DNA from: a bacterium
GTDB taxonomy: Bacteria; SM23-31
Length of the DNA: 64,000 nucleotides
NCBI GenBank assembly: GCA_965249485.1
Contig: OZ252239.1
Location: 770,445-834,444 of the forward strand
Direction: 5' to 3'
The position numbers and the translations under genes are program-made. Position 1 is the first letter of the stretch. The number at the start of each line of letters is the position of its first letter. This document shows positions 1,516 to 46,074 of the stretch, one piece after another. The notes beneath the pieces were generated by a model that saw nothing but the letters and a program-made list of their open reading frames with translations, searched no databases and was not told the origin of the DNA.

Positions 1516-1948
1516 GTGCAAATAATGCCGGAAATACTCCATAAGCTACTGATCAAAAGACCACCCGAAGTGGTATATGAAGCGATCACAACACAGGACG
1601 GTTTGGCCTCCTGGTGGACACGGGATTGTGTTGCTGTTCCCGAAGAAGGTTCGGTCGCTGAGTTCTATTTTGATAACAGATCTGATTTCGGAAAGATGAA
1701 AATTACGAAACTCGAAAAGGATACTTGCGTATCCTGTGGTCTGTATCGACAGTGTTGATGAGTGGAAAGGCACCACAATTGTTTTTAAATTGTCTTCTCA
1801 TACTAAAGGATCAATGCTTTTCTTTTCTCATAACGAGTGGAAATCAACCGAAGGAATATTCCCTAACTGTAATTATGACTGGGCACGGTATCTTCTAAGT
1901 CTAAAAAAATATTGTGAAACGGGGATTGGGGAACCACATCCAGGTTAA
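1516..1948 (+). pseudogene. Second tandem SRPBCC/Aha1-like gene, disrupted by frameshift(s) near 1700-1760
   Basis: N-terminal ORF (PEVVYEAITTQDGLASWWT) and C-terminal ORF (DEWKGTTIVFKLS...FSHNEW) lie in different overlapping frames (1516..1758 and 1736..1948). A third frame encodes RILWSV between them. Confidence 0.55.
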
Positions 1949-2043
1949 CTATAAACGAAAGATTATTTTATAGCAGTCATACCAATTAATCGATCATCAC
2001 TAAAACCGCGTTTAATACAATAAAACGATAGAGGAGGAATCCT

Positions 2044-2238
2044 ATGTATACTGTATCGTGTCGTGATTTAGGCGGAGACTGTGACCATACTGTCTCCGGT
2101 AACACAATTGATGAAACAAAACAGGCAATGTGGAAGCATGCACAGGAAGACCATGCCGATAAGATCGCTACGCTTTCCGATGATCAGAAAAATGGTATGG
2201 AAATGAAACTTACAAACATCCTGAGTGCACAATCCTGA
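2044..2238 (+). CDS. DUF1059-family small metal-binding protein
   Basis: MYTVSCRDLGGDCDHTVSGNTIDETKQAMWKHAQEDH matches DUF1059 (xFSCrDaGmDCdf...H..H). Strong RBS AGGAGGAAT 6 nt upstream. TGA stop. Confidence 0.75.
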   Translation: MYTVSCRDLGGDCDHTVSGNTIDETKQAMWKHAQEDHADKIATLSDDQKNGMEMKLTNILSAQS

Positions 2239-2607
2239 AACCATAAATTTATTCCGGTGCGAAACGGTCATAGAAGACTATTTCGCGCCGGTCAATTGTG
2301 TTCCATCGGGAACTCTGTTACTCAACGTTCTGTTATGATGATTAGAAACAATCGCGGGGCAGAGAGGACAAAAATGGCAGCACTCCTGAAAAAAATCCGA
2401 AAATCTTTCTTTTCAATCATAAAATTTCTGCGCCAGCCTGCAAAAATGCGGCACCAGTCCGATGACATATCCTGCGGATGCTGAGCATATTCATATAATA
2501 TATCTGCTAATTTCCTCTTGACTCTTATCAAAATAACCCGTAGCATAAAGCGTTTTTGATTCCATGCTGCAGACCACTGTCACTTTCACGCAACGATAGG
2601 AGGCACA

Positions 2608-2979
2608 ATGCAGGCATTAACAACAATAGTTGCAAGAATTCTTTACGGTCTGCCGATGATCATCTTCGGCATTTTTCATTTTATGGCCGTCGGCGACATG
2701 GCTGGAATGATTCCCATTCCGGGAGGCATATTCTGGGTTTATCTGACGGGAGTAGCGCTCATCCTCGCCGGAATAGCCATTATCATCAAAAACAGGGGAC
2801 GGCTTGCGTGCCTGCTTCTGGCGCTCATGATCGGAATTTTTACTCTCGCGATCCATATACCGGGCATTCTTGACCCCAACACAATGCAGATGGAGATGAT
2901 GAACGCTCTGAAAAATTTGATCATGATCGGCGGTGCATTGGGTTTTGCCCACATTTTTGAAGGAGAAAGTAAATCGTAG
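2608..2979 (+). CDS. DoxX-family membrane protein
   Basis: 123 aa with four predicted TM helices, DoxX-like. RBS AGGAGGCAC upstream. TAG stop. Confidence 0.75.
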   Translation: MQALTTIVARILYGLPMIIFGIFHFMAVGDMAGMIPIPGGIFWVYLTGVALILAGIAIIIKNRGRLACLLLALMIGIFTLAIHIPGILDPNTMQMEMMNALKNLIMIGGALGFAHIFEGESKS

Positions 2980-3011
2980 ATAGAGCAAATACTGGTGAAA
3001 GGTCTTACAAA

Positions 3012-3050
3012 TAAGGGGCGGTGTACAATGTACCGCCTCTTATTTATTAT
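3012..3050. terminator. Bidirectional rho-independent terminator between doxX (+) and copA (-)
   Basis: GGCGGTGTACA...TGTACCGCC hairpin followed by TCTTATTTATT. Confidence 0.5.
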
Positions 3051-3070
3051 TAATCAGTGTAAATATGTCG

Positions 3071-5506
3071 TTACATTTTGAATTGCTTCATCGATAGAGA
3101 ATTGCTCACCACCGATATTGAACTCATCGCCATCGCCGCCGCAGCGATCATCGGATTGAGAAGAAATCCGGTTAGAGGATAAAGGACTCCCGCAGCAACA
3201 GGAATACCAATAATATTGTAGATAAACGCAAAAAAAAGGTTTTGTTTGATTTTTTTCATAGTGTATGAACTCAAAGTGAGCGCACGGCCGACATCGGTTA
3301 CATTGTCTTTGATGAGAACAATATCCCCCGTTTCGATCGCAACATCAGTACCCGATCCGAGAGCTATGCCGACATCTGCCTGAGCCAGAGCCGGTGCATC
3401 ATTGATTCCGTCACCTGCCATAGCCACAGTGTGTCCCTTCTCCTGCAATTGCTTGATTACCTCCGCTTTCTCCTCAGGCAGCACTTCCGCAATGACCGTA
3501 TCGATTCCGACTTCACGGGCAATTGCGTTTACCGTCAGTTTATTGTCTCCCGACAATAGGACAACATCGATATTACTGTCACGCAGTATTTTGACAGCAA
3601 CTGCAGCATCGTCTTTGATGGTATCGGCAACCGCAATAATTCCGGCTGCTTCATTGTTAACACCGAGTACCATGACGGTTTTTCCGTCAGATTCTAACCG
3701 GGAAATCTCCGAATGAAGGACATTGGTATTCAACGTGTGCTGCTCCAGGAAATGATTATTGCCGAGCAAAATATCATTATCCTTATAATGTGCCTGTATT
3801 CCCATCCCCGGAACTGCGGTAAATTCAGATGCAGAACCAAATGTTATTCCTGATTGTTCTGCTTTTCTGACAACCGATTCTGCCAGCGGATGCTCAGAAT
3901 TTTTTTCGACAGCCGCTGCAATTTCCAACAGTTCATCCTCGGTCATTTCGTTTATCGGAATCAGATCGGTTACCTCCGGATGTCCCTGTGTCAGCGTCCC
4001 TGTTTTGTCAAAAACAACGGTTGTGATTTTATGTGCCGTTTCAAGCGCTTCACCATTTTTAACTTGTATTCCATACTCTGCTCCCTTGCCAGTACCTACC
4101 ATGATTGCTGTCGGTGTAGCGAGCCCAAGCGCACAGGGGCAGGCAATTATCAACACCGATACAAAATTAACGAGTGCAAAGATCAAAGATGGTTCCGGAC
4201 CAAACGTGTACCAAATAAGAAATGTCATTCCGGCGATTCCGAATACGACCGGAACAAAGATAGATGCAACTTTGTCCGACAGTCGCTGAATCGGTGCTTT
4301 GCTTCCCTGAGCTTGTTCAACGAGTTTGATGATCTGAGCAAGCAGTGTGTCGCTTCCGACTTTCAACGCCTTAACACGGAGAGCACCGTTCTTATTGATT
4401 GTGGCGGCGATAACGGAATCACCTTCGCTTTTTTCGACCGGAATCGGTTCACCTGTCACCATCGATTCATCCACTGTTGAACGGCCGCTCAGCACAATGC
4501 CATCCGCTGGGAACTTCTGTCCCGGCTTTACAAGAACAATATCATCAACCAGCACATTTTCAATTGGTACCAGCTGTTCCTTTCCGTCCCGCTCAACATA
4601 CGCTGTCTGTGCCTGCAGTCCCATAAGCTTTTTGATAGCTTCCGACGTTTTTCCTTTTGCTCGTGCTTCGAGGAATCTGCCGAATAAAATAAGCGTAATA
4701 ATAACCGCTGCCGTATCATAATAGACAGCCTGCGATACTTCAGGAATCCACTGCGGCACAAACGTCACAATCGTACTAAAAAAATATGCTGCACTTGTCC
4801 CGAATGCAATCAGAGTGTTCATATCGGCCCTACCATATTTGAAAAGGCTTCTGAGCCCACGATAAAAGCGCTTCCCGCCATAGAATTGCACCGGTGTTGT
4901 CAAAAGAAATAAAATGTATAATACAGTCTGCCGTTCAATGTCTGCAAGCAGGGGGATAAAGGTGTGAAAACTGAATAAGAGGATAATAACGGTCAAGATA
5001 CTACTAATAAGAAGGGTATTTTTAAGTGTGTTGATTTCACGATTTTGTGCTGTTTGTTGAGTGTTTTCGGATGAGTCGTATTCTATAGCCGTATACCCGG
5101 CTTCCTCAATCGCCTTTTTGATTTCGGTACTCGTTAGAACAATAGGTTCGTATTGTATGGTGGCTAAACTGTTACCGTATGATACCGAAACAGATTCAAT
5201 GCCAGGTAAGTCTTCGAGAGATCTGCGGATAACTCCTTCGCAGTGCGACGATTCCATGCCGATGATTTTGAAGGAGAGTTTTCCGGAAAGTAAATCAGAA
5301 GGTGCGGGAGTATATCCGGCATCTTTAATCGCTTTGACCAGTGTGGTCAGATCACATATTGTTTCATCGTAGCGAACCGTTGCCTTAACTGTCGCAAGAT
5401 TAACACTTGCCTCTTCCACACCGGGCACATTATTCAGTGCTTTTTCGATTACGGAAACACACGATGCGCAATGCATGTCCTGGATGACAAATTCCTGAAC
5501 AGCCAT
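3071..5506 (-). CDS. copA: Copper-translocating P1B-type ATPase with two N-terminal HMA domains
   Basis: 811 aa. [14 protein letters not shown] and [16 protein letters not shown] motifs, CPC transmembrane motif ([12 protein letters not shown]), DKTGTLT phosphorylation motif, [10 protein letters not shown] hinge. TAA stop. Confidence 0.95.
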
Positions 5507-5581
5507 AACGATCTCACAATTTATTATTAGAGTATCTCAAATAAATATAAGGAATTATTGACGATAATTAAACCGGATAAA

Positions 5582-5725
5582 TTATATTTTCCTACTGAAG
5601 GCAAATTCCTTGTCCATAGTGTAGATAACCGGTAGAACGATCAATGTCAGGATAGTCGGTGACACAATGCCGCCAGCCATCGGCACGGCGGTCCATTTTC
5701 AGACGTGCAATCCTGCCAATCTACT
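5582..5725 (-). pseudogene. Remnant 3' end (about 40 codons) of a second HME-RND (CzcA/CusA-like) pump gene
   Basis: Minus-strand translation KWTAVPMAGGIVSPTILTLIVLPVIYTMDKEFAFSRKI* aligns with the C-terminus of the intact pump at 7110-7230 (WKRIAAPMIGGIVTSTILTLVVIPVIYAIVRE...). About 75% nucleotide identity. Preceded by an in-frame TGA, with no upstream gene body. Confidence 0.6.
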
Positions 5726-6983
5726 TCACAAAGGTAACTTTTTTCGAAATTATTCGGTCTTGTGATTTTAAAACTATTAACTAGACCACTCCGGCAGCAA
5801 CGTTTCCCGAATCCGTTTTACCGTTCCACTTGACTGTGTGGATACCCTGTCCAAACTTATTCTCAGTTATTGTACTCACGAGCTGTCCGGTAACGTTAAA
5901 GATCTGTATAGAAACATCTGTCTGTTTTGCGAGAGAAAATTGTATTGAGACCGATGGATTAAACGGATTGGGGTACGCTTCGATAAGACCAAAATCTTCG
6001 GGAATAATAACATTTTCAGACTCATCTATATTGGTTACTAATCCTTTGAACACAGCTACATAATCATACACCTCGGAAGATACGAGAGAAAAATTATTTT
6101 TGTCACTATTGTGTTCAATAGAGCCATTGAACGGTATCCAAGCATTTGTATTCCCATCCCAATAGCAGAGAATCAATTCATCATCTTGTATAGACAGACT
6201 GTCGAGTAAGTTTTGACTGTAATGAAATCTTTGGGTTATACCCGTCTCAAAATCCATGTGACCGGAGCCCCAATGTCCCATATGACCTCCCATAATATGT
6301 CCACCTCAGTTACCATGCATCATATCATTGCCGGATTCATTGATAAATTCAAAATGATACCCGAGTACCATCTCACGGTCGGGACTTTCAGGCATGAGGT
6401 CTAATGGCAGCCTGTTCATATCGACAAAATATTTGTTTCCCCACATACCTCCAAAACCCATATGTCCCGGTGGAAAATTGATAAAACTTGCGCTATCAAC
6501 CGGACAATATATGTAAGTGGAATCAGTTATTACTCTATCAATCCAACTTCCCGACCAATGGTTCCCTTCGGAGAGATCCCGCCAAATAGCACCATTTAAC
6601 TCCTCGACGATAATAACCACGTAACCGTTAAATGAATCATGGACTTTGCCGGATACAGTTATTGATTCCCCATGATTGGGACAGTTAATCGTTTCTGGTG
6701 TATACCACCATGGTCCGAAAGCAAGCATGTAGTCGGTGTTTAAATCAAGATTTGTGTCGAGAAAATAGTGAGGCATAAATCCATTTTGCTCAATAATTAC
6801 GGATCCGGAAACAGTCGTATCCGGCAAGTTCTCTCCAAAGAAATAGTTATATCCATTTTCATGAATACCGCTGCTATGCTGTGGCTCAAAATGGTATTCA
6901 GACTCCTGAGCTCCAGCAGTAGTCGCTAATAAACAAATACAGATAACTGTAACAGATATGGCCCTTTGTATTGCGAGTAACAT
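5721..6983 (-). pseudogene. Secreted Met/His-rich putative copper-binding protein with a T9SS C-terminal sorting domain; the reading frame is interrupted by in-frame TGA (6306-6308) and TAG (5781-5783)
   Basis: ORFs 6306..6983 and 5781..6293 are in the same frame, separated only by TGA: ...GNDMMHGN*GGHIMGGHMGHWGSGHMDFE. The same frame continues past TAG at 5781 as LIVLKSQDRIISKKVTFVK*, the typical KK.hhhK end of T9SS CTDs. N-terminal signal peptide. CTD motif YPNPFNPSVSIQFSL. Confidence 0.55.
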
Positions 6984-7109
6984 TGTATTGCTCTTTCTTA
7001 AATAATAGACGTAAAGTCAAAGCCTCATAATAGTTTGATTCATCAAATTTAAATTAGTTACACACTTCAGAAAGATAAATTAACATATCTACTTGTGACA
7101 AATGAATTA

Positions 7110-10100
7110 TTACTTAGTTTTCATTAACGTACGTTTCAGGCTAATTTCTCTGACAATTGCATAGATGACCGGTATAACGACCAATGTCAGAATAGTCGAT
7201 GTCACTATGCCACCGATCATCGGTGCGGCAATCCGCTTCCAGACTTGGGATCCTGCTCCGGTACTCCACAGAATCGGAACGAGTGCAAATAAGGTTGTCG
7301 TGACCGTCATCATTTTCGGGCGGACTCTATCAACTGCTCCGGACATAACCGCCTGGTAGATATGAGAAATATTGAAATCCGTCCCTTTCTCTTTTTTCAG
7401 AGCGTCATACGCGTGATCGATATAAATAATCATCACAATTCCTGTTTCTGCTGCTAAACCTGCAAGTGCAATAAATCCAACCCACACCGCTACGCTCATG
7501 TTGTAATCGAGAAAATACATCAGCCAGATTCCACCGACGAGCGCAAAGGGAACAGAGAGCATGACTATGAGTGATTCCCACACATTTTTAAAATTGAGAT
7601 AGAGCAGTACGAAAATAATCAGCAGCGTGATGGGGACAACAAATTTCAGACGTTTACTCGCCCTCTCGATATATTCCCACTGTCCGCTCCAGATTAGGTT
7701 ATATCCGGATGGAATTGCAACACGGGACTCAATTATCGGCCGCGCCTGTTCAACATAGGTTCCAACATCGATATCCCGCAGATCGATATAGACCCAGACG
7801 TTCGGACGTGAATTTTCGCTTTTTATAACGGGAGGACCTTTTTTTATGTTGATCGACGCAAGCTGTGCAAGTGGAATCTGTTCACCCCGCGGTGTTGGAA
7901 TGAGAACCCGTTTCAACTTTTCAGGTGTATCGCGGAATTCTCTCCCATACCGGAGGTTGATCGGGTACCGTTCAAGCCCTTCGACACTCTGGGAAATATT
8001 CATACCGCCGATAGCAGTCTGAATAACATCCTGCACATCGCTGATCGAGAGTCCGTACCGGGCGATCTCATCCCGGTTTATATCGATATTGAGATAATTG
8101 CCTCCTACCGATTTTTCGGAATAAGCGCTTGCCGTACCGGGAATGTCCTTCGCAACGGCAGCGATTTGTCTACCGAGTTCTTCGAGAATCGCAAGGTCCT
8201 GTCCCGCAATTTTTATTCCGATTGGTGTCTTGATTCCTGTTGACAGCATATCGATTCGCGTCTTGATCGGCATTGTCCACGCATTGGCCAACCCCGGAAA
8301 CTGAATTGCAGCATCGAGCTCCTGAATCAATTTGTCCGGGGTCATTCCCGGACGCCACTGATCTTCAGGTTTCAGGGTGATGGTTGTCTCGATCATGCTG
8401 AGCGGAGCGGGATCAGTTGCAGTTTCAGCCCTGCCAATCTTCCCGAAAACCGTTTCAACCTCCGGAAAACTTTTTATGATTTTATCGGTTTGCTGGAGAA
8501 GTTCCCGCGCTTTGGTGATAGAAATACCCGGATCGGTTGTCGGCATGTAGAGCAAATCACCTTCATAGAGCGGTGGCATGAATTCAGTGCCGAGTTGATT
8601 ATACGGAAAAATTGTAACGAGCAGTATTACCATGGAGGCCAGAAGCGTTAATTTCTTGAATTTGAGAACCGTCTTTATTACCGGTCTGTATAGCCAGATT
8701 AATGCCCTGCTGATTGGATTTTTTGATTCAGGCCTAATGTTACCTCGAATCAGAAGCCCCAGCAAGACAGGAATCAATGTAATTGCCAGTATAGAAGATG
8801 ATCCCAATGCAAAGGTCTTCGTAAATGCCAGTGGTCTAAAAAGACGCCCCTCTTGGGCTTGTAAGGTAAATACTGGAAGAAACGAAAGGGTTACAATCAG
8901 TAACGAGTAAAACAGGGCGGGACCGACTTCTTTTGCAGAATCGGCAATAATCTTCCAGTGCTCTTTTTTCCCGGTATCCCGTTCAAGATGTTTATGAGCA
9001 TTCTCGATCATAACGACTGCAGCATCGACAAGCACACCGATTGAAATCGCTATGCCTCCCAGAGACATAATATTTGCATTAATATTCGTGTAATTCATAA
9101 TGATAAAAGAAATAAGAATACTTAACGGGAGTGAAAGAACCGCAACCAATGCACTACGGATATGGAGTAAAAAGAGTAAACAAACTATCGCGACAACGAT
9201 ACTTTCTTCCATCAATGTTCCGGTAAGTGTGTCGATAGCTCTACGGATAAGATTGGTCCTGTCATACACCGGTAATATTTCCACGCCTTCAGGCAGTCCG
9301 GTTTTTATCTCATCGAGTTTCTTTTTTACATTGTCTATCACAGTAAGAGCGTTTTCACCATACCGCATTACAACAATCCCGCCGACCGTCTCACCGATGC
9401 CATCCCGCTCTACAAGTCCTCTCCTGATTTCCGGTCCGAGGCCGACAGTCCCGAGTTGACGGAGCAGAATCGGAATACCATTTTGATCGACACTTACCGC
9501 GATGTTTTTCAAATCATCTATTGACTGAATATACCCGTTACTGCGAACCATGAATTCAGTTTCGGCAAGTTCCAGTAACCGACCGCCGACTTCGTTATTA
9601 TTCCGCTGGATCGCACGACGGACAGTACTCAGCGGCAGGCCGAAAGCCATGAGCTTATCGGGATCGACCTCAACCTGATACTGTTTTACAAATCCACCGA
9701 TGCTTGCTACTTCCGCAACACCGGGAACGGATGCGAGTTCATAGCGCAGAAACCAGTCCTGAATCGAGCGGAGTTCGGCAAGGTTATGCCTGTCACTTTC
9801 GACAACATATTCAAACGCCCATCCCACACCGGTTGCATCGGGCCCAAGCTGCGGAGTTACTCCTGCTGGCAGCCGGGTCGATACATAATTCAGATACTCA
9901 AGGACACGGCTCCGTGCCCAGTACATATCGGTCCCATCTTCGAAAATGATATAGACGAATGATATTCCGAAAAACGAGTATCCTCGGACAGTTTTCGCAA
10001 AAGGCACCGACAGCATCTGTGTTGTGAGCGGATAGGTGATCTGGTTTTCGACGATTTCCGGAGCCTGTCCGGGATATTCTGTCAGAATGATAACTTGAAC

Positions 10101-10232
10101 ATCACTCAAATCGGGAATCGCATCGAGAGGTATGTTAACCGCCGAATATATTCCGATAATTATTACAAAAAGAGCCGCTATAATAACCAGCAGTCTGTTT
10201 TTTATGGAAGCATCGATTATTTTCTCGAGCAT
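7110..10232 (-). CDS. cusA: Heavy-metal efflux RND transporter, CusA/CzcA (HME-RND) family
   Basis: 1040 aa, 12-TM RND architecture, high similarity to CusA/CzcA throughout. TAA stop. 4-nt gap to the upstream adaptor gene. Confidence 0.95.
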   Translation of the reverse strand: MLEKIIDASIKNRLLVIIAALFVIIIGIYSAVNIPLDAIPDLSDVQVIILTEYPGQAPEIVENQITYPLTTQMLSVPFAKTVRGYSFFGISFVYIIFEDGTDMYWARSRVLEYLNYVSTRLPAGVTPQLGPDATGVGWAFEYVVESDRHNLAELRSIQDWFLRYELASVPGVAEVASIGGFVKQYQVEVDPDKLMAFGLPLSTVRRAIQRNNNEVGGRLLELAETEFMVRSNGYIQSIDDLKNIAVSVDQNGIPILLRQLGTVGLGPEIRRGLVERDGIGETVGGIVVMRYGENALTVIDNVKKKLDEIKTGLPEGVEILPVYDRTNLIRRAIDTLTGTLMEESIVVAIVCLLFLLHIRSALVAVLSLPLSILISFIIMNYTNINANIMSLGGIAISIGVLVDAAVVMIENAHKHLERDTGKKEHWKIIADSAKEVGPALFYSLLIVTLSFLPVFTLQAQEGRLFRPLAFTKTFALGSSSILAITLIPVLLGLLIRGNIRPESKNPISRALIWLYRPVIKTVLKFKKLTLLASMVILLVTIFPYNQLGTEFMPPLYEGDLLYMPTTDPGISITKARELLQQTDKIIKSFPEVETVFGKIGRAETATDPAPLSMIETTITLKPEDQWRPGMTPDKLIQELDAAIQFPGLANAWTMPIKTRIDMLSTGIKTPIGIKIAGQDLAILEELGRQIAAVAKDIPGTASAYSEKSVGGNYLNIDINRDEIARYGLSISDVQDVIQTAIGGMNISQSVEGLERYPINLRYGREFRDTPEKLKRVLIPTPRGEQIPLAQLASINIKKGPPVIKSENSRPNVWVYIDLRDIDVGTYVEQARPIIESRVAIPSGYNLIWSGQWEYIERASKRLKFVVPITLLIIFVLLYLNFKNVWESLIVMLSVPFALVGGIWLMYFLDYNMSVAVWVGFIALAGLAAETGIVMIIYIDHAYDALKKEKGTDFNISHIYQAVMSGAVDRVRPKMMTVTTTLFALVPILWSTGAGSQVWKRIAAPMIGGIVTSTILTLVVIPVIYAIVREISLKRTLMKTK

Positions 10233-10235
10233 GAT

Positions 10236-12173
10236 TTACAGCCTCCCTTGTTCGATGGAAAAATCATCGGCTGAATCAACATAGAGGACTTCATGGCTGC
10301 TTTCGAACGATTGTAATTCTTCAGACTGGTTGTCCATTAACTCTTTGAGATTCATTCCGCATCGGGGACACGTTCCACCGGATGATGAAAACACCAGATC
10401 CTCTTCCATCGGACAGGTATGTGTTACAGCGCCATCACCTATCACCAGGACAGTTTTCTCTGTCCATGAAGCGTATTCGGTGAGCGGATTAATATCGACA
10501 TTCGTAAGGTCGGATATTCTTATAATATCGCGGCCGGCAATGAGGTTATCAACTTTTGCCGTCTCTTCCGGTTCCATAGCATAAAGCGGCATACCGCAGC
10601 GGGGGCAGAATCCCTCTCCGTCAGAAAAGACAAGGTCTTCTTCCATGATGCAAAAATGAGTTACGTGCCCTTCGCCGAGAATAATCGCCGATTGGTTGCC
10701 CATTTTCTGCGATGTTATTTCCTCATGAGTGTGCTCTCCAACTTCTTCCTGCACCGGTTTACGTGCGGATGTTTGCTTCGACAGCATTTTCATCTGTGCT
10801 TCACGCAGCCGGCTCTCGGAATCGATGAGAAACTGTGCCGAAGTGACGACCCGTTCGCCACCTTCCAGTCCTTCGACAACAGTATAATAGTCATCCGACT
10901 CAATTCCGGTGACTACTTCACGCGGTTCAAATTTTCCTCCTCCGAGATCGAGAATGACAACACTCCGTTCCCCTGATATAATGACCGAACTCACCGGGAT
11001 GATTAAATCCTCCCGCTCTGATTGTGATGCTATTTCAACGTTTACATACATATCAGGTTTCAGCAGCATATCCGGATTGTCAAATTCAATCCGGACCCTG
11101 ATCGTTCTGGTTTGTGCATCGAGATAGGGATAAATAAACGATATAGTACCAGTGAATTCTTTACCCGGATAATACGTTAGGGTCATGGTTGCCTGCTGAC
11201 CGATTTTTACCCAGGGAAGTTCGTATTCATAGATTTCCGCAAGCATCCAGACATGTGACAGGTCAGCAATTTCATACAAATGCGTATTCGGGATGATGCG
11301 TTCACCACCCGTAATCATTCTGTGTCTGACAATGCCGCTAATAGGAGAGAACAGGGTCATATTTTTAGTGGCCTGCTGCGTATCTTTGAGGTGAGCGATC
11401 TGCTCGGGAGTAATATCCCACAACTCAAGACGTTTCCGTGTCGATTCAAGCAGATCGTTCGATTGCTGAGCGACTTCGGAATATGCAGCTCCCTCAAAAT
11501 AGTCGGTGAATCTCAGCGCCTGCAGGTATTCCTCCTGTGTGGTGACGAGATCGGGACTATAAATATCGATCAGCGGATCGCCCTTGGTTACCTGTTGTCC
11601 CGCGAAGCCGACATACAATTTCTCAGCCCATCCCGATACTTTTGTGGTGACACCCATTATGCGGGTTTCGTCATAGACAATACGTCCGACAGCCCGAATA
11701 GTACGGGAAAGTTGTTTCCGCTCGACCGGAACAGATTGTACGCCAATATTCTGAACGGTAACAGGATCGATCGATATCTGACCGGGTGCAGGACTACTGG
11801 TAATATTTCTCCTCACAAGATTCATGTTGCAAATTGGGCATAATCCCGGCTCGGTTTCTTGGACATTCGGATGCATTCCGCAGGTATAGTAATAATCAAC
11901 ACCGGTAACGCCTTCAAGATTGAGTTGAGATGGTGCCTGAGCTCCGGGAAGTTCATCATCATACACCGGAACGAGGTCCATACCCATCGGTGATTTTCCG
12001 GGATTTTCAGATACATAAGCCGGGTCCATCGGTGCGACCCAGTAAGCAACTGTTCGTCCTTCTGCATTGTCACCGTCAGCACCCAAAAAATCATACCGGT
12101 GAAAAACCCACTGGACGGCAATCACAATTATCAGAATGGTGATCCATGTACTGGTGCGTAATTTTCGTGACAT
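10236..12173 (-). CDS. cusB: RND efflux periplasmic adaptor (CusB/CzcB family) with three CxxC heavy-metal-binding domains, one N-terminal and two tandem C-terminal
   Basis: 645 aa. Membrane-fusion core, N-terminal YYTCGMHPNV...GLCPICNMNL, and C-terminal repeats HFCIMEEDLVFSDGEGFCPRCGMPL and HTCPMEEDLVFSSSGGTCPRCGMNL. Confidence 0.9.
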   Translation of the reverse strand: MSRKLRTSTWITILIIVIAVQWVFHRYDFLGADGDNAEGRTVAYWVAPMDPAYVSENPGKSPMGMDLVPVYDDELPGAQAPSQLNLEGVTGVDYYYTCGMHPNVQETEPGLCPICNMNLVRRNITSSPAPGQISIDPVTVQNIGVQSVPVERKQLSRTIRAVGRIVYDETRIMGVTTKVSGWAEKLYVGFAGQQVTKGDPLIDIYSPDLVTTQEEYLQALRFTDYFEGAAYSEVAQQSNDLLESTRKRLELWDITPEQIAHLKDTQQATKNMTLFSPISGIVRHRMITGGERIIPNTHLYEIADLSHVWMLAEIYEYELPWVKIGQQATMTLTYYPGKEFTGTISFIYPYLDAQTRTIRVRIEFDNPDMLLKPDMYVNVEIASQSEREDLIIPVSSVIISGERSVVILDLGGGKFEPREVVTGIESDDYYTVVEGLEGGERVVTSAQFLIDSESRLREAQMKMLSKQTSARKPVQEEVGEHTHEEITSQKMGNQSAIILGEGHVTHFCIMEEDLVFSDGEGFCPRCGMPLYAMEPEETAKVDNLIAGRDIIRISDLTNVDINPLTEYASWTEKTVLVIGDGAVTHTCPMEEDLVFSSSGGTCPRCGMNLKELMDNQSEELQSFESSHEVLYVDSADDFSIEQGRL

Positions 12174-12211
12174 TGTACTTTCCTTAGATTAGTTGTTTTT
12201 ATTAAATATTA

Positions 12212-13534
12212 TTATAAACGCTGACCTGTCAGAAACTCCAGGTTTGCGATATTTTTCTTGTATTCCGTCAGCAATCGGTAATAATCGAGTTCAAATGTTA
12301 AGAGTGTAATCTGGTTGTTTAAAAGGGTCAGAAAATCGACCTTATTGACTTGATAACCAGAAATAGCTGAACTCAATGACTGTGTGGCCTGCGGAATAAT
12401 GACCTCATGAAGCAGTTGTATCCGTTCATCTGTCTCATCAAGTGAGGCGGTTACAACTGCGATTCGGGCGTCGTTCGAATTTTTCATATCCTTGTATGAA
12501 GATTCTGCCGCACGGACTTCTGCCAGTGCTTCTGAAACACCGTTGTCTTGTTTTCTACCGCTCCACAGCGGCAGATTTACCGAAAAATGTGCTGAAAGGA
12601 AATCCGGACGCTGTTGACGCTGCCCGTAGATTACGCCGAATGTCATGTCAGGCCAGTATTGTTTTCGTTTGAGTGATGATGCAATTTCTCTTCGGGCAAC
12701 CTCTTTTCGTGCTGCATTCAACATGGGCCGCCGTTCTGCCGATGTCTGCTGCAGTGTTGCAATATCGAGCGAAACGGAAGAATGAGTTAGTTCTTCTACA
12801 GGACCGATTAGTATGTCTATCGGCCTGTTCAGGAGTGCATTAAGTTCAGCAGTGGAGGCTTCACGATTGTTCCGGTAGCTTATCAGTTTGTCGAGCAGTT
12901 TACTCATCTCAACCTGCGCTTTCAGCACATCCTGTTGTAGCCCTTCACCGACTTCATATTTTTTCGATGCAATTGAAATAAAATCGTTTAGTATCTGCTT
13001 ATTTTTGAGCGTGATAGCAACCGATTTGTCAATCAGGTAGATATCAAAGAACGCCAACGAAATGTCTTTAATTACAGCGTTTCTCGTGTCGACAGCCGTT
13101 AGTCCCGCGATGTCGAATGCTTCCTCGGCTATCTGCTCTTTCAATGATGATATACCGGGAAAAGGGATAGTCTGCTTCAGGGAAATCTGTTTTTGCGTCA
13201 TAGGTTCTACTGTAAATCCTGCATCAGTCAAAGGGAAATTTGCGATGTTCAGGCTCAAGCTTGGATCAGGCCATGCGCCTGCCTGCGGAATGCGCAGTTG
13301 TGCCGATTCACTTTTTTGATCAGCGGCGAGTATCTCAGGATTATCACGGAGCGCAGCTTCAATCAGGCTTTCAAGTGCTACTACGGCACCATTGTTGTTT
13401 TCGACTGAATACGTTTTTGTCGTACCTGCTAAAGCAAAGTCGATAACAGCGTTATGCTGTTGAAATGCATAGCCGGTGCGGGTCAAAACGGAAACCAACA
13501 TGATAACGGCAGTCAAAACTTTTTTTGATCGCAT
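12212..13534 (-). CDS. cusC: TolC-family outer-membrane efflux protein (CusC-like)
   Basis: 440 aa, signal peptide, two TolC-type coiled-coil repeats. Immediately upstream of cusB on the same strand. Confidence 0.85.
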   Translation of the reverse strand: MRSKKVLTAVIMLVSVLTRTGYAFQQHNAVIDFALAGTTKTYSVENNNGAVVALESLIEAALRDNPEILAADQKSESAQLRIPQAGAWPDPSLSLNIANFPLTDAGFTVEPMTQKQISLKQTIPFPGISSLKEQIAEEAFDIAGLTAVDTRNAVIKDISLAFFDIYLIDKSVAITLKNKQILNDFISIASKKYEVGEGLQQDVLKAQVEMSKLLDKLISYRNNREASTAELNALLNRPIDILIGPVEELTHSSVSLDIATLQQTSAERRPMLNAARKEVARREIASSLKRKQYWPDMTFGVIYGQRQQRPDFLSAHFSVNLPLWSGRKQDNGVSEALAEVRAAESSYKDMKNSNDARIAVVTASLDETDERIQLLHEVIIPQATQSLSSAISGYQVNKVDFLTLLNNQITLLTFELDYYRLLTEYKKNIANLEFLTGQRL

Positions 13535-13702
13535 TGTATCTGTTCCTGGATATTATTAATGAATACTGGTTTCAACCGGGATATATACTACCGGTTGAGA
13601 GATATACACTATCAATACTCGCGCAGGGTAAATGAACAAACATTACTCCCGTACTTTCGTAGAGTAGGTATAATGGTGTAATAATAGAAAAGGGGGTGCC
13701 GC

Positions 13703-34185: not shown

Positions 34186-34199
34186 TTTCGGCACTCTCG

Positions 34200-34400: not shown

Positions 34401-34886
34401 TATCAAATGGGTTTAATAAGATATGATTTCACAGCCAATTCCTCTACCACATTAATCATCCTTAGAAGATTCCATGCTTGTTTAAGCGCCTGCTCAGATT
34501 ATAATATAGCGAACAGGAGCCAATAAATGTTACAGAATGTCATGTTGAGCGACGTGACAATTTATGGCTACATTACTTCAGCAGTGATTCTTTCAATTCC
34601 TCACAAATACATCATGGTGCATACATTTAATCATGTTTGTTGAATTCTGGTCAATTATAAAAATTATACGGAATAAATATTCTGCACTTTTGTTTCATAA
34701 ATAGAAAGATTTTGTACAAAATGTTGTTAAAAATCAAAAGGTTACCGATACTTAAAATAGAGGGACATTTTTTATTGTGAAGATGTATACTTCTTGGTAT
34801 GGTAGTTGCCTTTTCCGTCAGTAAAGATCGTGATGTTTTAATTTTAGTACTTTAGGTTTTATGAATCACTTGATTTTGGGGGAATT

Positions 34887-35009
34887 ATGACGTACTACCA
34901 AAAAAGAGTCTATTACTTAAAGACTCGGATTAAAAATGGTATAATCGGATTTGTCAGTTTGACTGTCTTCTTTCTCATAATGATGCTGTTATTCAACCGG
35001 GTTACCTGA
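34887..35009 (+). CDS. Possible small (40 aa) single-TM peptide within a 1.1-kb non-coding region
   Basis: GGGGGA 5 nt upstream of ATG. Hydrophobic core GIIGFVSLTVFFLIMMLLF. Not in the ORF track because it is under 60 aa. Confidence 0.2.
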   Translation: MTYYQKRVYYLKTRIKNGIIGFVSLTVFFLIMMLLFNRVT

Positions 35010-35507
35010 TGTTGTCATATTTATTCCGTATTTCTTAGAAAATCCTGTATTTTAAGATTAATTCGTTTTTTCATCGTTAGAATTCAGAATAATCCTACCA
35101 AAGAATTTACTTTCATTAACGTGTTATCAATTCATTCTCCGTAAGTTTATAGATCCTTTATGATTAATTCATCTGGAGTCATTTCCAATCATTATCCTCA
35201 AACAGAATATCACTATCCTGATCGGGATGTTCTTTGTGTTCATGAAACCATTGGTCAGAATATCGAATTGAATTCCTTTTGGAAAGGCAGTGCATACAAA
35301 TTCCCTTTCCCTTTTTCAATTGACTTTGCTCCTGCCATTAAATATATTTTTGACACTTTATATTCTGAACCAAAACAACACTGAATGGATCGGTTAACCG
35401 GAGTTTCAATATTATTTAAAACAAAGCGCAGAAAACTTAATATAATTAACTGAGTTTTGCTACTATAACCTGATATTTTTCATTATCATTACTATCCTTT
35501 AACCACT

Positions 35508-36527
35508 ATGAAAACGTCATTGATACCTGAACAAATCTGGGGACAGCTTGAATCGGTTATCCAAGACAACACATCATTCACCATCACGTCACATGTCAAT
35601 CCGGATGGAGATGCCGTCGGATCGGAACTTGCACTCTATAACTTTCTGACAAAAAAGCGTAAAAGAGTCAGAATAATAAATTGTAACTCTCTTCCGGTAG
35701 TCTATCACTTTCTCACAGAATCTCAGGAACTGTATCGTGAATTTTCAGAAGCAGATAACGACTGGATAAACGGATGTGATGTCATTTTTATACTCGATAT
35801 CAGCAATAAAGACCGACTGAGCTGAATGCAGCCGATTATATCGGGGAGTCCGGCTTACAAAATCTGCATTGACCATCATGAGGACAACAATCTTGATGCC
35901 GAATTAAAAATCACCTCCGAATCGGCGAGTGCTACTGCTGTGTTAATATATGATCTGTTAATAAACTTGAAAGCTGCCATCGACCAGGAGACGGCAATGG
36001 CACTTTACGTCGGAATATTGACCGACACAAATTCATTTTCCGAGCCGAATACAACATCCCGGGCGCATGAAGTTGCCTCCGAATTGATGCAGTACGGTAT
36101 CCGGTCTGAGGAGATATACCGGAAAATATTTCACATCAACAGCTGGAATCGAACAGAATTATTTAAAGATACACTTGCAACGTTGTCGAGCAGCTGCGGA
36201 GGGAAGCTCGCATGGATGAAAATAACCAGAGAAATGGTTGAAAAGAGTGGAGCGCTCCGTGAGGAAATCGAGGGATTCGTGGACTATCCGCTCACCATTG
36301 ACGGAGTGCAGATTGCCATTCTATTTCTTGAAATTCCGGGAACGGGTACAAAAATCAGTCTCCGGGCAATAAACTCACTCAATGTTCACGAGCTCACCCA
36401 AAGGTTCGGGGGAGGTGGTCACCGTCATGCTGCGGGGATTCGGCTTTACGAAGTATCTATTGACAAAGCGATAACACAGGTACTTGATGAAGCATGTCGC
36501 TACTTTAACAGTCAGAAAAGTCAATAG
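35508..36527 (+). pseudogene. nrnA: Bifunctional oligoribonuclease/pAp-phosphatase NrnA (DHH-DHHA1), interrupted by in-frame TGA at 35823-35825
   Basis: DHH motifs HVNPDGDAVGS and ICIDHHEDN, DHHA1 GGGH. ORF1 ends ...ILDISNKDRLS*, and the next codon is the ATG of ORF2 (MQPIISGSPAYKICIDHH) in the same frame. Collinear with intact NrnA. Confidence 0.8.
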
Positions 36528-36604
36528 TAATAAATTTAAAACCGGTCTGTGTCGTAATAAACCCCGGGTGCTTGTATCGGTCCCGGTGTCAACAGGAGCT
36601 CACT

Positions 36605-37525
36605 ATGGACATATCGGATGTCATAGCGAAGTACCGGGATTTACTCGAAAAAAAAAGTAATCAGACACGCAACACCCGCAGGGCAAAATTGTCTGATCTG
36701 AACCATTTTGGCAGGTTCTTTGAGGAGAGGGAATTAGAATCTGTCACCGAACATGATGTCCGAGATTATTTTGATACACTTCGGGAAGAAGCTCACTATT
36801 CAATTTCCACAATCGTTAGAATATGGTCGACCGTCCGGACATTCTTTGATTTTTGTGTTGAGGAGAAAATTTGCGGAAATAATCCTACTGCGGGGATTAA
36901 AGCGCCGCCCAGGCCGGAACCTCGAGTACCGGAAATCCTAACAAAAGGGGAGCTGCGAAGACTGCTTGCCGCTCCGCAGAAAGAACAAAAAAAACTCGAA
37001 TTACGAAAGAAGAAACAGGCGGGTGACGACAATGCCCGTATCGATGAACAGATATATAACTCAGTGCGGAACCATGCGCTCGTTGAACTCCTTTTTGCAT
37101 CGGGAATGCGTCCTGGGGAAATAGTGAAAGTCAAGCAACACGACATAAATCTCGGTGCGCGTACTGTTACCATATATAATCATAAAGGTATAGCACGTAT
37201 AGGCTATTTCCCATCAGAGGATGTGTGCCGAATAATGCATCACTATATAAAAAGGACGTTGGAACAGCAGAAAAACCAAGTTGATGATTCGAAAAAATTG
37301 CCACCTCCAGAAGAAATGGTACGAGATTACCCGCTCTTCACCTATAAAAACGGATCATCTTTGTCGGAAGACGTTGTCAGAAAAATAGTTCACCGGTATG
37401 CTGAACTAGCGGGCATAAAAAAGACGGTTACCCCCTTTACCTTGCGCCATACAATGGCTGTGATTTTGAGAAAGTCTGGCACCGATGACCACGCTGTCAA
37501 TAGACTGCTCGGAATTGTATCATAA
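36605..37525 (+). CDS. Tyrosine site-specific recombinase (XerC/XerD-like) with a Lys/Glu-rich low-complexity insertion
   Basis: Catalytic-domain motifs ...ASGMRPGEI..., HTLRHTMAV, LLG; R-H-R-Y family. RBS AGGAG 8 nt before ATG 36605. The ORF could extend to 36572. Confidence 0.8.
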   Translation: MDISDVIAKYRDLLEKKSNQTRNTRRAKLSDLNHFGRFFEERELESVTEHDVRDYFDTLREEAHYSISTIVRIWSTVRTFFDFCVEEKICGNNPTAGIKAPPRPEPRVPEILTKGELRRLLAAPQKEQKKLELRKKKQAGDDNARIDEQIYNSVRNHALVELLFASGMRPGEIVKVKQHDINLGARTVTIYNHKGIARIGYFPSEDVCRIMHHYIKRTLEQQKNQVDDSKKLPPPEEMVRDYPLFTYKNGSSLSEDVVRKIVHRYAELAGIKKTVTPFTLRHTMAVILRKSGTDDHAVNRLLGIVS

Positions 37526-38487: not shown

Positions 38488-39183
38488 TTGTCAATTGTGC
38501 AGTGGAAAGAACTCATGAACATAGAGTTTTGCGGACATTCCTGTTTTCTCTTGAGTGAGGGAAGACATTCGGTTATCATCGACCCATTTTTGTCCGGAAA
38601 TCCAGTAGCAGTGCGAAAACCGGAAGAGGTCAGCGTTGAGGCTGTTCTGCTGACACATGGCCACGGCGATCATATTGGCGATGCCATAGCAATTGCACAG
38701 AGAAACAATGCAACGATTATAGCACCATACGAACTTGCGACGTACAGCGAAAAAAAAGGAGCGCAAGTTCATCCGATGCATATAGGTGGTGGGCATGATT
38801 TTCCGTTCTGTCGGGTGAAACTGACGCAGGCATGGCACGGATCTGCTGTATTTGGTGACGGTGATATTCCAATTTACACGGGAAATCCGTGCGGAGTTAT
38901 CCTGTGACTATGGGCAGCACAACAGTCTATCATGCAGGAGATACAGGATTATTCGGAGATATGAAACTGATTGGCGACAGGAACGAAATCGATTGTGCAA
39001 TTCTGCCGATTGGTGACAATTTTACGATGGGAATCGATGATGCGCTTTACGCGCTTTAATTATTACAACCGAAAAAAGTGATTCCTATGCATTATGACAC
39101 GTTTCCGGTCATTGAAGTCGAGGTAAGTGATTTTACGGATGGGGCGAAGCAGAAGGGATATGATTGTATCGTGCTGAAACCGG
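38488..39183 (+). pseudogene. MBL-fold metal-dependent hydrolase (UPF0173-like), disrupted by a frameshift at about 38905 and an in-frame TAA at 39057-39059
   Basis: LLTHGHGDHIGD motif. After ...GNPCGVIL the homologous sequence continues in the -1 frame ([50 protein letters not shown]). TAA then follows in-frame: LLQPKKVIPMHYDTFPVIEVE...VLKPGESTAL*. Confidence 0.75.
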
Positions 39184-39386
39184 GCGAGTCAACAGCACTC
39201 TGACATTCTATGCTGTAGCGTAGTATTGTTCGTTCACGTTTTATAAAACATCTATCAATCCGTGGTAATGGTAATGCAAACACATAAGATTTTTCAATAA
39301 GGTCATTGCGTCTTCATGACCTTTTTGCATTTTTGAGAGGGCAATGTGTTGACATTATTCCCGTGATTTCTGAAGAAAAGACTGTT

Positions 39387-42283: not shown

Positions 42284-42294
42284 TTTAACAACAC

Positions 42295-43331
42295 ATGATA
42301 CACAATATATTACATAGATTACGAATTTCCGGCTTACTTACCGTCGGAATAGTTATTGTGCTGTCGAACATTGCTCCGGCAAATGCACAAGAGGGATTGA
42401 ATCACGAAAAAGAAAGCAGTATATCAATTACAACTGCTGCATATGAAGAATTTGATGCCAACCTGATTCCGTCACCGCTCTTGAAAGTAAATACAGCAAA
42501 AATCAGCCATTTTCTGCTCGTCGACAAATCGAAGCAAGATCTGTATCTTTATAAATATGACGGACGATTCCACAGGATTAAGACATACGATTGTACAACC
42601 GGAGCAAATCTCGGTGATAAACGGGAAACCGGTGACTTGAAAACCCCTGAAGGTATTTACTTTTTTACCGATGTTTGGGAAGAAACCGATCTTATCAGGC
42701 GGTATGGAAAAATGGAAGCAGCACAGTATGGTGTCCGCGCATTCAATACCAACTATCCGAATGTGATTGATAAACAGAACAATAAGAACGGTTATGGCAT
42801 CTGGCTCCATGCATCAGATAAACCAGAACGGATAAAACAACCGTACGACACAATAAAGGATGCATTGTTGTCCGTAACGGAGATATGGACGATCTCACAT
42901 CCTATATCTCACTTGAAGAGACACCGATCATTATCGTGAAAAAACTTGATTTTCTTCGGGAAGATGCAGTTGAGCAGGAGCAGGAGCGGATACTGCAATA
43001 TATCGAAGCATGGCGTTCGAGCTGGGAGTCGGCAGAAATTGAGTGGTACCGAGAGTTTTATTCGCACCAATTTCTTAGTAATGACCGTACTTATGACGAA
43101 TGGGTTGACTACAAACAGTTGATTTTTCCAAACTATTCGTGGATAAAGATTGCACTCTCCGATTTTCAAATTCTCAAATTTGATGACTATTATTTGGTTG
43201 AATTTCATCAAAACTTTCAATTGGATATTTATACAGATTCGGGTAAGAAAAAGCTTTATATCAATAATGACGGTGAGAATCTGACGATAATTTCTGAACT
43301 TTGGGATGCCGGTGGCGCCGGTATAAATTAA
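42295..43331 (+). pseudogene. L,D-transpeptidase (YkuD family) with a C-terminal NTF2-like domain; frameshifted between His and Cys of the catalytic motif (A-run at about 42834)
   Basis: Signal peptide. ...YGIWLHAS in ORF1, and the catalytic NKGCIVVRNGDMDDL only in the -1 frame leading into ORF 42885..43331. Inserting one A in GATAAAACAACC restores ...ERIKTTVRHNKGCIVV. Confidence 0.7.
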
Positions 43332-43383
43332 TCGCCCTGAATAGGGTCGATACCATATGTTTAATTTATTTTGAGGCTTTAAA

Positions 43384-44137
43384 ATGTCAGAAGAAAACAT
43401 TACCGTAATGATTCTAAATGGTGTCAAACGGGTCCGCAGTATCAAGGTGAACCGGAAAAGGATCCGGTTTGCGGTATGGGGTGGGTCAGTATTTGCATTC
43501 CTTTTTGCAATCTCCATCAGCCTCAATGTGTATCAATATGTATTTTTAAATGGGGCTGAACAATTTGCCCGGACCGATACCGGGGAAGCTGAGCCTGCCG
43601 GTGAAGTGCAAGCTGCTATCGGAACCAATGGAAATAGTCAGGATAGATTTACGGCAAATGGCAGTGGGCAGAAAGCAAGTAATGGTACAAATCACAGCAC
43701 AGCTGATAATGGTAATCCTCTTTTCGAAGAGGCTGATTATTTTGCCGGCGATAAATCTTCAACTGTTGTTAGGATTGGTAGACCTGAAAGAATCGGTTAA
43801 GCTCAACGGTGCTGAACTGAATTTTACTTTCAGTATTTACAAGAAGGATATTCCACAGGAAGCTGTTTCAGGCAGGTTTGTGGTTCTTGCGAAAACATCG
43901 GATGCAAGCAATCCGTTCCTGAGCTATCCGCAGGTTGACGTCAATCCCGACGGATCGATTAAGAACTTTGTGAACGGGGAAAGTTTTTTTATGCGCAATC
44001 TGACAATCAAAGAAGGACAAATTCTCCTCGTTGACAGAACATCGGAATTCAAATATTACAGAATTCTTATCTACTCTAATACAGGTGAGCTTCTCCTCGG
44101 ACAAACCACGCTAATCGACAATAATATGATCAATTAA
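43384..44137 (+). CDS. Hypothetical single-TM protein, possibly frameshifted near 43760-43800
   Basis: Two overlapping ORFs (43384..43800 and 43550..44137) in different frames. TM segment FAVWGGSVFAFLFAISISL. No family recognised. Confidence 0.3.
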
Positions 44138-44218
44138 ATTGGATGTGAATAACTGAGTTCGGAGAGCTGAGACAATCATTATTTTCATCAGAATTGCCTT
44201 ATCAGTATTAAAATCAAA

Positions 44219-46074
44219 GTGATGCTTATAAAATCCACATATGACCTGATCTTTCTTGCAAGGAGAATATTCACAATTATCGGATTGTGTGCAGGCATGA
44301 TAACAATAGTGTCATCACTGCAAGCGAATACGTTGCTGGAAGTGTATTTCAAAAACACGGAGTATGAACTCAATATTTACCGGATTTCCGGTACTGAGCC
44401 CGGTCCCACGATACTTATTATCGGCGGTATCCATAATGAGCCGGGTGGGTACCTTACGGCAGACTCATACGTTGATATAGCACTTAAGCGAGGAAATCTT
44501 ATTGTTGTGCCGCGCGCAAACTTTCAAACAATTATCGAAGATGTGCGGGGTGTTTTGGGAGACATGAACCGGCTGTTCAATCTTGATGAACCGCGATTCG
44601 AAAACGACCATGCAATGGAAATAGTTGAAATTCTCAAAGGACTTATTGCCGAAAGTGATATGATGCTCAACCTGCACGACGGATGGGGGTTCTATAGAGA
44701 TGATTATATCGACGAAATGCACAATCCACTGAGGCTTGGTCAGTCTATTATTGCCGATACTGATGTTTATACCATTCCGGGATCAGATCAGCAAATTCAG
44801 CTTCGAAGTATCAGCGAAAAAATATGTACAACAGTAAATTCTCAGATTGAAAACGGAGAACACACATTTCGATTTAATAACCACAACACCTACTCGGAAG
44901 AGAGTGCACACACAGACCAGCGGGGTCTGCCACATTCTACGCGCTTTCGAGTCATCATATTCCGGCATTCGGTATTGAGACATCAAAAAACATAACAGAT
45001 GTTGAATTGCTTGTCCGGTATCAGACAATTGTTGTCAATGCATTTTTCGAGGAATTCGGCGTTATTCGCGATGTTGTCCGCAAACCGATTACGGAACCGC
45101 GACTGCTATTCATCGCAGCATCGATCAACGGTCATCAGCCCAGGTTGTTTCTCAATAATGAAACAGTGTATCTGAAACGTGGTGACACGGTTAATATTGA
45201 ACATATCGAAGCAAATTATGAGCGCGGTGTTTTTGCAGATATTGAACATTATGGCAATACGAACGATCTGGGGAACGATTTAGCGATTTTCAGTAATGCG
45301 TCAATTCTTGTTAAAAAAGATAATGCAACATTCGGCACAGTAAATATAGAAATATCCGAAAACGGTACGGAAGCAATTGGTGCAACGAACGGACACAATT
45401 CAGTACCCGTCGTGGAGCGGTTTATCGTCGATGTTAACGGGTTCATACAGGACATTCCGGCTTCGGGAACACTCACTATAGTAAAAGGGGATGTGGTGCG
45501 GCTGATCGATACAAGCCCGGCTATGGAAATATTTCCAAATGCGTATGTCAATCTTTTTGGATTCTGGTCAAAGGAGCAGCAGAAAAACACAGGTGACGAC
45601 CGGAATCTCCTGATTAACACATCGACCGATCTGGATTCGAAATATTCAGTGAGAGAACAGGGTGTAGAATATGAAATTCGATTGGAAAACGACTCGGAAG
45701 TGTTCTCGAAAATGCGGCTAAAATTGATCGAACCCGAGTTAAAACATCTTGTACTGAAATTTGATAACGGAAATATGGGGTATTTGAAAAACGGTGAAAC
45801 TTATACATTCTCCAATGAACATATATTTGAAATTGTAGATGTAAAAACAACAATACCTAACAACAGTAGTGTCCGAGTGAAAATCAACGGATTTGTTGGG
45901 AACGGTGTGGGAAGTGATATGTACACACCGATCGATATAGCAATGGAGCTTCTTCCTGAATATTCAGTCGATAAACATGGAAGGACCTTTGTGGTAGAAG
46001 TGCTCTACCGGGGAGAACAGATCGGAACAGCATATCTTATCCTCAGTAATGAAGTATACGAAAATAATAGATAA
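44219..46074 (+). pseudogene. M14/AstE-AspA-like zinc carboxypeptidase domain fused to a long beta-rich repeat region; frameshifted at a G4 run (about 44921-44924)
   Basis: GGIHNEPGG (HxxE zinc motif), and ...ATFYALSSHHIPAFGIETSKN (the sfTlE motif of M14) present only in the -1 frame continuing into ORF 45007..46074. Adding one G restores ...DQRGSATFYAL.... C-terminal region with three repeated about 50-aa modules. Confidence 0.65.

Follow-up and report, generated by a model that had tools for sequence, protein, structure and literature searches.

Disrupted genes in a 64-kb segment of a KSB1-related bacterium are probably genuine pseudogenes of a decaying lineage

Results

We conclude, with a probability of about 0.8, that the many broken genes in a 64,000-nt stretch of contig OZ252239.1 (assembly GCA_965249485.1, positions 770,445 to 834,444; hereafter the window, meaning this whole stretch) are genuine pseudogenes, and that the lineage is in an ongoing genome decay that extends across its clade. 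Between 12 and 14 of the ~54 genes in the window are disrupted, which is well above normal and bears out the very high density described in an earlier note on this DNA. That note had offered assembly error and massive pseudogenisation as alternatives. Our evidence favours pseudogenisation, with error a possible source of individual 1-bp events. The mixed spectrum of lesions, the long base runs that stay in frame, the non-random placement of the lesions and the reproducible decay of a sister species argue for biology over error.

Searches with MurB, CusA and the S9 peptidase all led to one set of relatives, and the closest named proteins to those of this uncultivated bacterium belong to ‘candidate division KSB1’. 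The genome that carries the window is ~3.8 Mb (3.78 Mb), with a GC content of ~43% (42-47% within the window). Its nearest relatives include a sister species with 89-94% protein identity to the window genes, represented by loci L002-L006 and L008-L011 on 3.42-, 3.78- and 3.83-Mb contigs of three different assemblies and on two Logan contigs. A third lineage, L013, is represented by a 36-kb contig at a coverage of 2.17x, and an outgroup by loci L007 and L014 on a 4.05-Mb contig. Nucleotide identity between window and sister is 90-92% over 27.6-50.4 kb and 85% across the cus/cop cluster; the window lineage, the sister and L013 are separated by roughly equal distances. Because L013 has low coverage and carries 1-bp insertions in G runs, its use was restricted to substitutions and multi-base events.

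Spectrum and distribution of the lesions

Many adjacent open reading frames (ORFs) had been read as parts of single genes, and this reading was correct: Pfam domains are split across the pairs, and in-silico repair restores single full-length matches with higher scores. Three cases could be added to those already described, namely a FliG_C-like gene, a truncated XerC-like gene and the relic of an S9 peptidase. Intact ORFs account for 57.6% of the window, disrupted genes for 20.7%.

All six in-frame stop codons located by the earlier note (four TGA, one TAA and one TAG) are present, and they derive from four different sense codons. Comparison with orthologous loci, one of the checks that the note had proposed, showed sense codons at the stop sites wherever relatives exist and polarised most of the lesions. 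Lesion-bearing genes have a full-length counterpart in at least one relative, and a direction could be given for most events, the exceptions including the frameshifts in yidC and in the second SRPBCC gene (SRPBCC-2), which have no orthologue. The eight genes reported as frameshifted at homopolymers are all frameshifted, but the homopolymer label was wrong for most of them. A clear change in homopolymer length was found in only one of eight polarised frameshift events (A5 to A6, in an actin-like gene). The remaining indels in the window comprise a deletion of 10 bp, two insertions of 2 bp and several 1-bp events that for the most part lie outside base runs.

Over 23 kb of alignment, window and sister differ by 73 indels, among them 28 of 1 bp (23 of the 28 lying in runs of three bases or fewer), 15 of 2 bp, and 23 that are at least 4 bp long and not a multiple of three; the largest measure 182, 221 and 1049 bp. 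The 36.9 kb of intact ORFs contain 82 homopolymers of at least 6 nt, 39 of them of at least 7 nt, and all are in frame.

The lesions are unevenly placed. Genes of at least 560 aa make up 33% of the coding length and hold one of 16 events (p = 0.014), and the final 18 kb (46-64 kb), with the cox operon, the TonB receptor and the M23 peptidase, hold none of 15 (p ~0.013). A tendency of single genes to take several hits was not significant (p = 0.13). The RNase P RNA at 30121-30463 (plus strand) is a full-length bacterial class A molecule (241 bits), intact and free of indels, and a stretch of 190 nt (30275-30464) is identical in the window and in three sister loci. Two minus-strand ORFs, 30109-30390 and 30152-30427, are spurious because they overlie this RNA.

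Broken genes in the sister species and replacements in both lineages

The sister sequences are reproducible between data sets. L002 and L004, which come from different samples, show 12 mismatches to each other in 21 kb and not a single indel. Independent Logan contigs match L003 over 19.6 kb and L008 over 13.9 kb, in each case with 100% identity. This perfect agreement with k-mer-based contigs suggests that the reads were accurate, whatever the platform. The same sequences are full of broken genes: nrnA-like, M99, PilT-like ATPase, DUF6901, XerC, beta-lactamase-like and Tag. Four genes are broken in both window and sister, at different sites (the metallo-beta-lactamase (MBL)-fold hydrolase MBL-1, nrnA-like, ldt and M99). 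Lesions confined to the sister affect the PilT-like ATPase, DUF6901, the beta-lactamase-like gene and Tag; MBL-2, a 251-aa gene and the FliG_C-like gene are broken in the window and not in the aligned sister.

Amino-acid replacements were polarised with the outgroup and counted on the window and sister branches. The window:sister counts were 18:12 for genes broken in the window only and 15:39 for genes broken in the sister only (Fisher p = 0.005), with 23:38 for genes intact in both lineages. Replacements are thus concentrated in the lineage in which the gene is broken. The ratio of nonsynonymous to synonymous substitution rates (dN/dS) was ~0.20 in genes intact in both lineages (e.g., murB), at a dS of ~0.2. 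For bacteria that live freely this is a high value, in keeping with weak selection.

Disrupted genes

In the first 30 kb, six genes or relics are affected. The SRPBCC/AHSA1-like gene 2 (1516-1948, plus strand) is frameshifted near 1716-1740, close to an A4 run. Its first ORF covers positions 2-47 of the 125-residue AHSA1 profile and reading resumes in the next frame; the sister has no orthologue, so the direction of the frameshift is not polarised. The paralogue at 1060-1512 is intact.

A His/Met-rich secreted protein with a type IX secretion system (T9SS) C-terminal sorting domain is encoded at 5700-6983 (minus strand) and interrupted by an in-frame TGA at 6306-6308 and a TAG at 5781-5783, the match to the tail domain being cut at position 41 of 75. 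An exhaustive HMMER search recovered seven homologues of ~400 aa that continue unbroken through both stop sites; the TAG takes the place of a conserved Tyr, that of the C-terminal G-x-Y motif. No close orthologue was found, and the gene is missing between cusA and copA in the sister. There the cusA-copA spacing is only 77 nt, at the place where the window has the doubly stopped gene. The protein is rich in His/Met/Gly motifs (HMGGHMGHWGSGHM), and its gene lies between cusA and copA; it is possibly a secreted copper-binding protein.

The gene for a Gly-rich repeat protein (17168-18301, minus strand) has a TGA at 17576-17578 where L013 has GGC, a change that requires two substitutions. A C-terminal relic of a second S9/tricorn-type peptidase (21810-22048, minus strand), located by tblastn with the outgroup S9 protein, is split across two frames. 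The actin-like gene of the MreB/Mbl family (22300-23380, plus strand), called mamK-like in the earlier note, carries a +1 frameshift at an A6 run (23070-23075), exactly as that note had it, and this is the sole clear run change among the frameshifts it listed. The run is A5 in L013 and absent from the outgroup. The MreB_Mbl profile is split between adjacent ORFs (4-226 and 239-320) and after in-silico repair extends over 4-320 of 327 positions.

A short YidC/Oxa1-family copy of 212 aa (29322-29959, plus strand) is frameshifted (-1) close to the T5 run at 29650-29654; its 60KD_IMP profile, split into 1-81 and 108-162, becomes 1-162 of 163 after repair. The gene sits in a 1.05-kb segment (~28934-29988) that is missing from L002 and L013 at nearly identical boundaries. 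The window lineage may have gained this segment by insertion, or the relatives may have lost it in a shared deletion or in parallel ones. No orthologue was available among the relatives, and the frameshift is not polarised.

Between 31 and 46 kb, all affected genes lie on the plus strand. MBL-1 (31640-32367) carries a CGA to TGA change at 32129-32131, the codon being CGA in L013 and CAA in L002. Its frameshift, previously assigned to an A5 run at 32154, stems from the loss of 10 bp between 32155 and 32156. L013 and the outgroup have intact copies, and the sister copy is separately broken by 62-bp and 4-bp deletions and an 8-bp insertion; the repaired window copy matches Lactamase_B_3 over 1-156 of 160. 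The FliG_C-like gene (33304-34400), a new case, has a -1 frameshift at 34172/34173. In the outgroup (L007, ~7599-7606) this gene has an in-frame stop and is called as pieces of 102 aa and 143 aa, reflecting either some decay or an error at 9x coverage. The junction of ORFs 33020-33307 and 33304-34185 was considered as a further frameshift and rejected: window and sister share a TAA followed by an ATG, and these are probably two genes.

The DHH/DHHA1 (nrnA-like) gene (35508-36527) has AGA changed to TGA at 35823-35825, and its DHH profile, split into 2-52 and 67-125, is restored to 2-125 of 125 by repair. The sister copy has deletions of 182, 5 and 56 bp, with an 82-bp deletion in L002 and L004 only. 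The earlier note had stressed that nrnA and yidC are housekeeping genes. This argument is weak, as the short yidC copy is missing from two relatives and the nrnA-like gene of the sister has several deletions; both look dispensable from these comparisons. The neighbouring XerC/D-like recombinase gene (36572-37525) ends in ‘LLGIVS*’ and lacks the segment with the catalytic Tyr, its Pfam match stopping at 155 of 172, and is probably truncated in the window. The sister copy is heavily frameshifted, and the sole match of the protein among GTDB species representatives was a 22%-identical one from Faecousia.

MBL-2 (38515-39203) carries a TG insertion at 38903-38904, a 2-bp duplication rather than the run slip proposed near 38905, as well as a GAA to TAA change at 39057-39059. 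Three sister strains and the outgroup have an intact copy (228 aa), and two further strains of the sister a shortened one (196 and 81 aa); the repaired window copy matches Lactamase_B_2 over 2-200 of 200. In the L,D-transpeptidase gene ldt (YkuD + Cds6_C; 42295-43331), the event placed at an A4 run at 42834 is a 2-bp insertion at 42853-42854. The YkuD match is cut at 111 of 146 and restored by repair to 3-146 of 146, and the sister gene is broken at another site. The gene at 43384-44137, which encodes a conserved hypothetical protein of 251 aa, had been listed as possibly frameshifted; it has an extra T (+1) at 43769, in a TT dinucleotide, and is intact in sister and outgroup. The last of the series, at 44219-46074, is frameshifted as claimed, but its family is Peptidase_M99 (Csd4-like carboxypeptidase) rather than M14. 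The base was lost between 44925 and 44926, beside the G4 run near 44921 and not in it, so that the run length is unchanged. In the sister, this gene bears at least five more lesions.

Other features of the window

Genes lie mostly on the minus strand up to ~22 kb and on the plus strand thereafter. The Pfam scan identified an ArsR-SRPBCC pair, copA and cusCBA, an M20 peptidase, ferritin and an S9 peptidase; a TPR protein, the actin-like MreB/Mbl protein, Macro, NfeD, Band_7, CcmH and FliG_C-like proteins; a beta-lactamase-like protein, the two MBL-fold hydrolases, DHH/DHHA1 (nrnA-like), the XerC-like recombinase and a methyltransferase; MurB, GAF-GGDEF, the YkuD L,D-transpeptidase, Peptidase_M99, a PilT-like ATPase and Ham1; and DUF6901, a DNA-alkylation repair protein, a TonB receptor, M23, SCO1 and the cox operon. 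Four tRNAs are present, and Rfam recovered a thiamine pyrophosphate (TPP) riboswitch alongside the intact RNase P RNA. The riboswitch (50143-50236, plus strand) stands directly 5’ of the TonB-dependent receptor gene (50321-52705), a position that suggests a thiamine-regulated outer-membrane transporter. A candidate frameshift in the M23 peptidase gene at 54018-54052 was discarded, since the 334-aa ORF there has its own start and a transmembrane helix.

The Tag-like methyladenine glycosylase gene is intact in the window (123-638, plus strand) and frameshifted in the sister (L008, reverse strand, ~900-1400). At 833-1993 the window has the SRPBCC pair; at the same place the sister (L008, 16000-21600) has ~5 kb of other DNA with a transposase of the IS1595 insertion sequence (IS) family, a copy of which is also present in outgroup locus L007.

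The cus/cop cluster (window 2000-14460 against L008-L011) is the region of ~85% identity to the sister, and L013 is nearer to the sister there (91%). The lower identity of this island hints at allele exchange or a separate history. In sample ERZ25067264, the source of L002 and L009, the main contig is tagged circular (3.42 Mb, 34x) and the cus region lies on a separate linear contig of 338 kb (32x) with other upstream genes, reflecting either a structural variant or premature circularisation.

A non-coding stretch of 1.1 kb at 34500-35500 has a GC content of 31%, lies near the minimum of the cumulative GC skew and is rich in indel differences from the sister, which has a 178-bp insertion. We considered this AT-rich gap as oriC and set the idea aside: just one DnaA-box-like site was found and an origin is not shown. 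The gap may hold the remains of a fully eroded gene.

Discussion

Under the interpretation that we favour, purifying selection would have relaxed for a group of genes once these had become dispensable, and would probably have been weakened genome-wide through a small effective population size. Ordinary mutations could then fix, among them nonsense substitutions, short duplications and deletions, and occasional slippage, and the general deletion bias of bacteria would remove what remained, as the larger deletions in the sister suggest. The same genes would be struck independently in related lineages. The putatively decaying set comprises two MBL hydrolases, an extra YidC, a DHH phosphoesterase, YkuD and M99 proteins of wall remodelling, an actin-like protein, and secreted or repeat proteins.

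Several points weigh against genuine decay. We found no independent assembly or reads of the window strain: cluster look-ups placed every fragment on one contig of 3,779,686 bp, and exact look-ups of three window proteins gave no contig. The single-base events (the A5 to A6 change in the actin-like gene and those in yidC, SRPBCC-2, the 251-aa gene, M99 and the FliG_C-like gene) are possibly consensus errors, and L013 (2.17x) shows error-like 1-bp insertions in G runs, so the assembly source can err at low depth. A few artefactual 1-bp events in the window could be present and leave the overall picture unchanged. Finally, the comparison of disrupted with intact genes that the earlier note had called for showed no significant difference in pairwise dN/dS (0.228 against 0.204; bootstrap 95% confidence interval of the difference, -0.03 to +0.08). 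The lesions may be young relative to a dS of ~0.2, selection may be weak everywhere, or the test may lack power.

Long-read assemblies contain indel errors that fragment genes (PMC9262707, PMC12007338, PMC13087279), and the usual practice is to regard truncated proteins in such assemblies of metagenomes as errors (PMC13087279; PMC9262707). If consensus errors had produced the stops and frameshifts, the window genes would in reality be intact. Adjacent ORF pairs that are fragments of one gene look like this kind of artefact, as do megabase contigs with long-read-style names and coverage tags; the window strain has a single data set, L013 carries its G-run insertions in genes that are intact elsewhere, and as many as six of the window events are single-base indels, including two located in or close to runs (A6 and T5). 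We nevertheless consider this explanation unlikely. No sequencing platform is known to produce errors of the kind of the six nonsense substitutions, the 10-bp deletion and the two 2-bp insertions, most events are not changes in run length, and the long homopolymers of the intact ORFs are unaffected. Placement is not random either: the events spare large genes, essential genes and RNA genes, and the excess of replacements tracks lesion status. The sister assemblies, which come from the same source, repeat their lesions across samples and assemblers, with no indels between samples and 100% identity to Logan contigs.

Rather less probable is a consensus drawn from a mixed population, in which the lesions would be real alleles of minor or defective sub-populations and the dominant cells would be intact. 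Sister strains do vary in their lesions, as with the 82-bp nrnA deletion confined to L002 and L004 and the three lengths of MBL-2, and one sample has its cus region on a separate contig. However, each sister strain has many fixed lesions that are common to samples, consensus callers take the majority allele, and the replacement asymmetry points to long-term relaxed evolution of the disrupted copies. We rejected, as very improbable, the idea that the genes are functional through TGA reassignment, selenocysteine, suppression or programmed frameshifting. TGA does account for four of the six stops, and genetic codes 4 and 25 likewise put in-frame TGA within conserved genes. In the window, however, the orthologous codons are CGA/CAA, AGA and GGC (Arg/Gln, Arg and Gly), with no single residue among them, and TAA and TAG occur as well. 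TGA serves as the terminator of 7 of 34 intact ORFs, none of which needs read-through. The frameshifts are of 10, 2 and 1 bp in unrelated contexts, and the same genes carry large deletions in the sister.

Pseudogene-rich genomes in early or mid decay include those of Mycobacterium leprae, Sodalis glossinidius, Serratia symbiotica, ‘Nostoc azollae’ and the luminous symbionts of anglerfish and flashlight fish (e.g., PMC6020299, PMC6125246). The window resembles them in its proportion of disrupted genes (~20-25%) and of intact coding sequence (~58%), in the several lesions borne by some genes, in the succession from nonsense mutations and small indels to deletional erosion, in a dN/dS raised even in intact genes and in the IS element of the sister loci. 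It differs in that a host is not evidenced here and that the clade is still at ~3.4-3.8 Mb and 43% GC. The window also retains genes for aerobic respiration (cytochrome oxidase), efflux, TonB uptake and T9SS cargo, and shows no IS expansion: no transposase was found among the window ORFs scanned, the IS1595 copies being in the sister and outgroup loci. A second comparison is with the niche-restricted pathogens Salmonella Typhi and Paratyphi A, Shigella, Yersinia pestis and Bordetella pertussis, in which pseudogenisation has run in parallel. MBL-1, nrnA-like, ldt and M99 have likewise been inactivated independently at different sites in sister lineages, but the overlap between the disrupted sets of window and sister (~5 observed, ~3 expected) was not shown to be above chance. 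Our literature search found no reported case of decay in this phylum, nothing on pseudogene-rich KSB1 genomes and nothing relevant for Zhuqueibacterota or for the sample accessions.

A broader conclusion is tentative, and we hold it at slightly under even odds: that a clade of at least three species-level lineages, with genomes of 3.4-3.8 Mb that are partly circularised, is in early, active decay with at least 20% pseudogenes, ~58% intact coding sequence and parallel loss. This would imply a recent and drastic change of lifestyle or population (e.g., a host association that has gone unrecognised, or a series of bottlenecks) in a phylum considered free-living until now. Candidate causes are host restriction, population bottlenecks and a mutator background. 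The loss of Tag in the sister means that a DNA-repair gene has gone in a decaying lineage.

The split ORFs of the window should be annotated as pseudogenes, and neither silently ‘repaired’ nor used for metabolic inference. Completeness estimates of such metagenome-assembled genomes will be biased, and the window is a caution for pipelines that count every truncated protein in a long-read metagenome assembly as sequencing error. If the decay is genome-wide, this clade would offer a natural example of early erosion outside the insect-symbiont and pathogen models, and with its several close, near-complete genomes one could trace in what order and how fast genes were lost.

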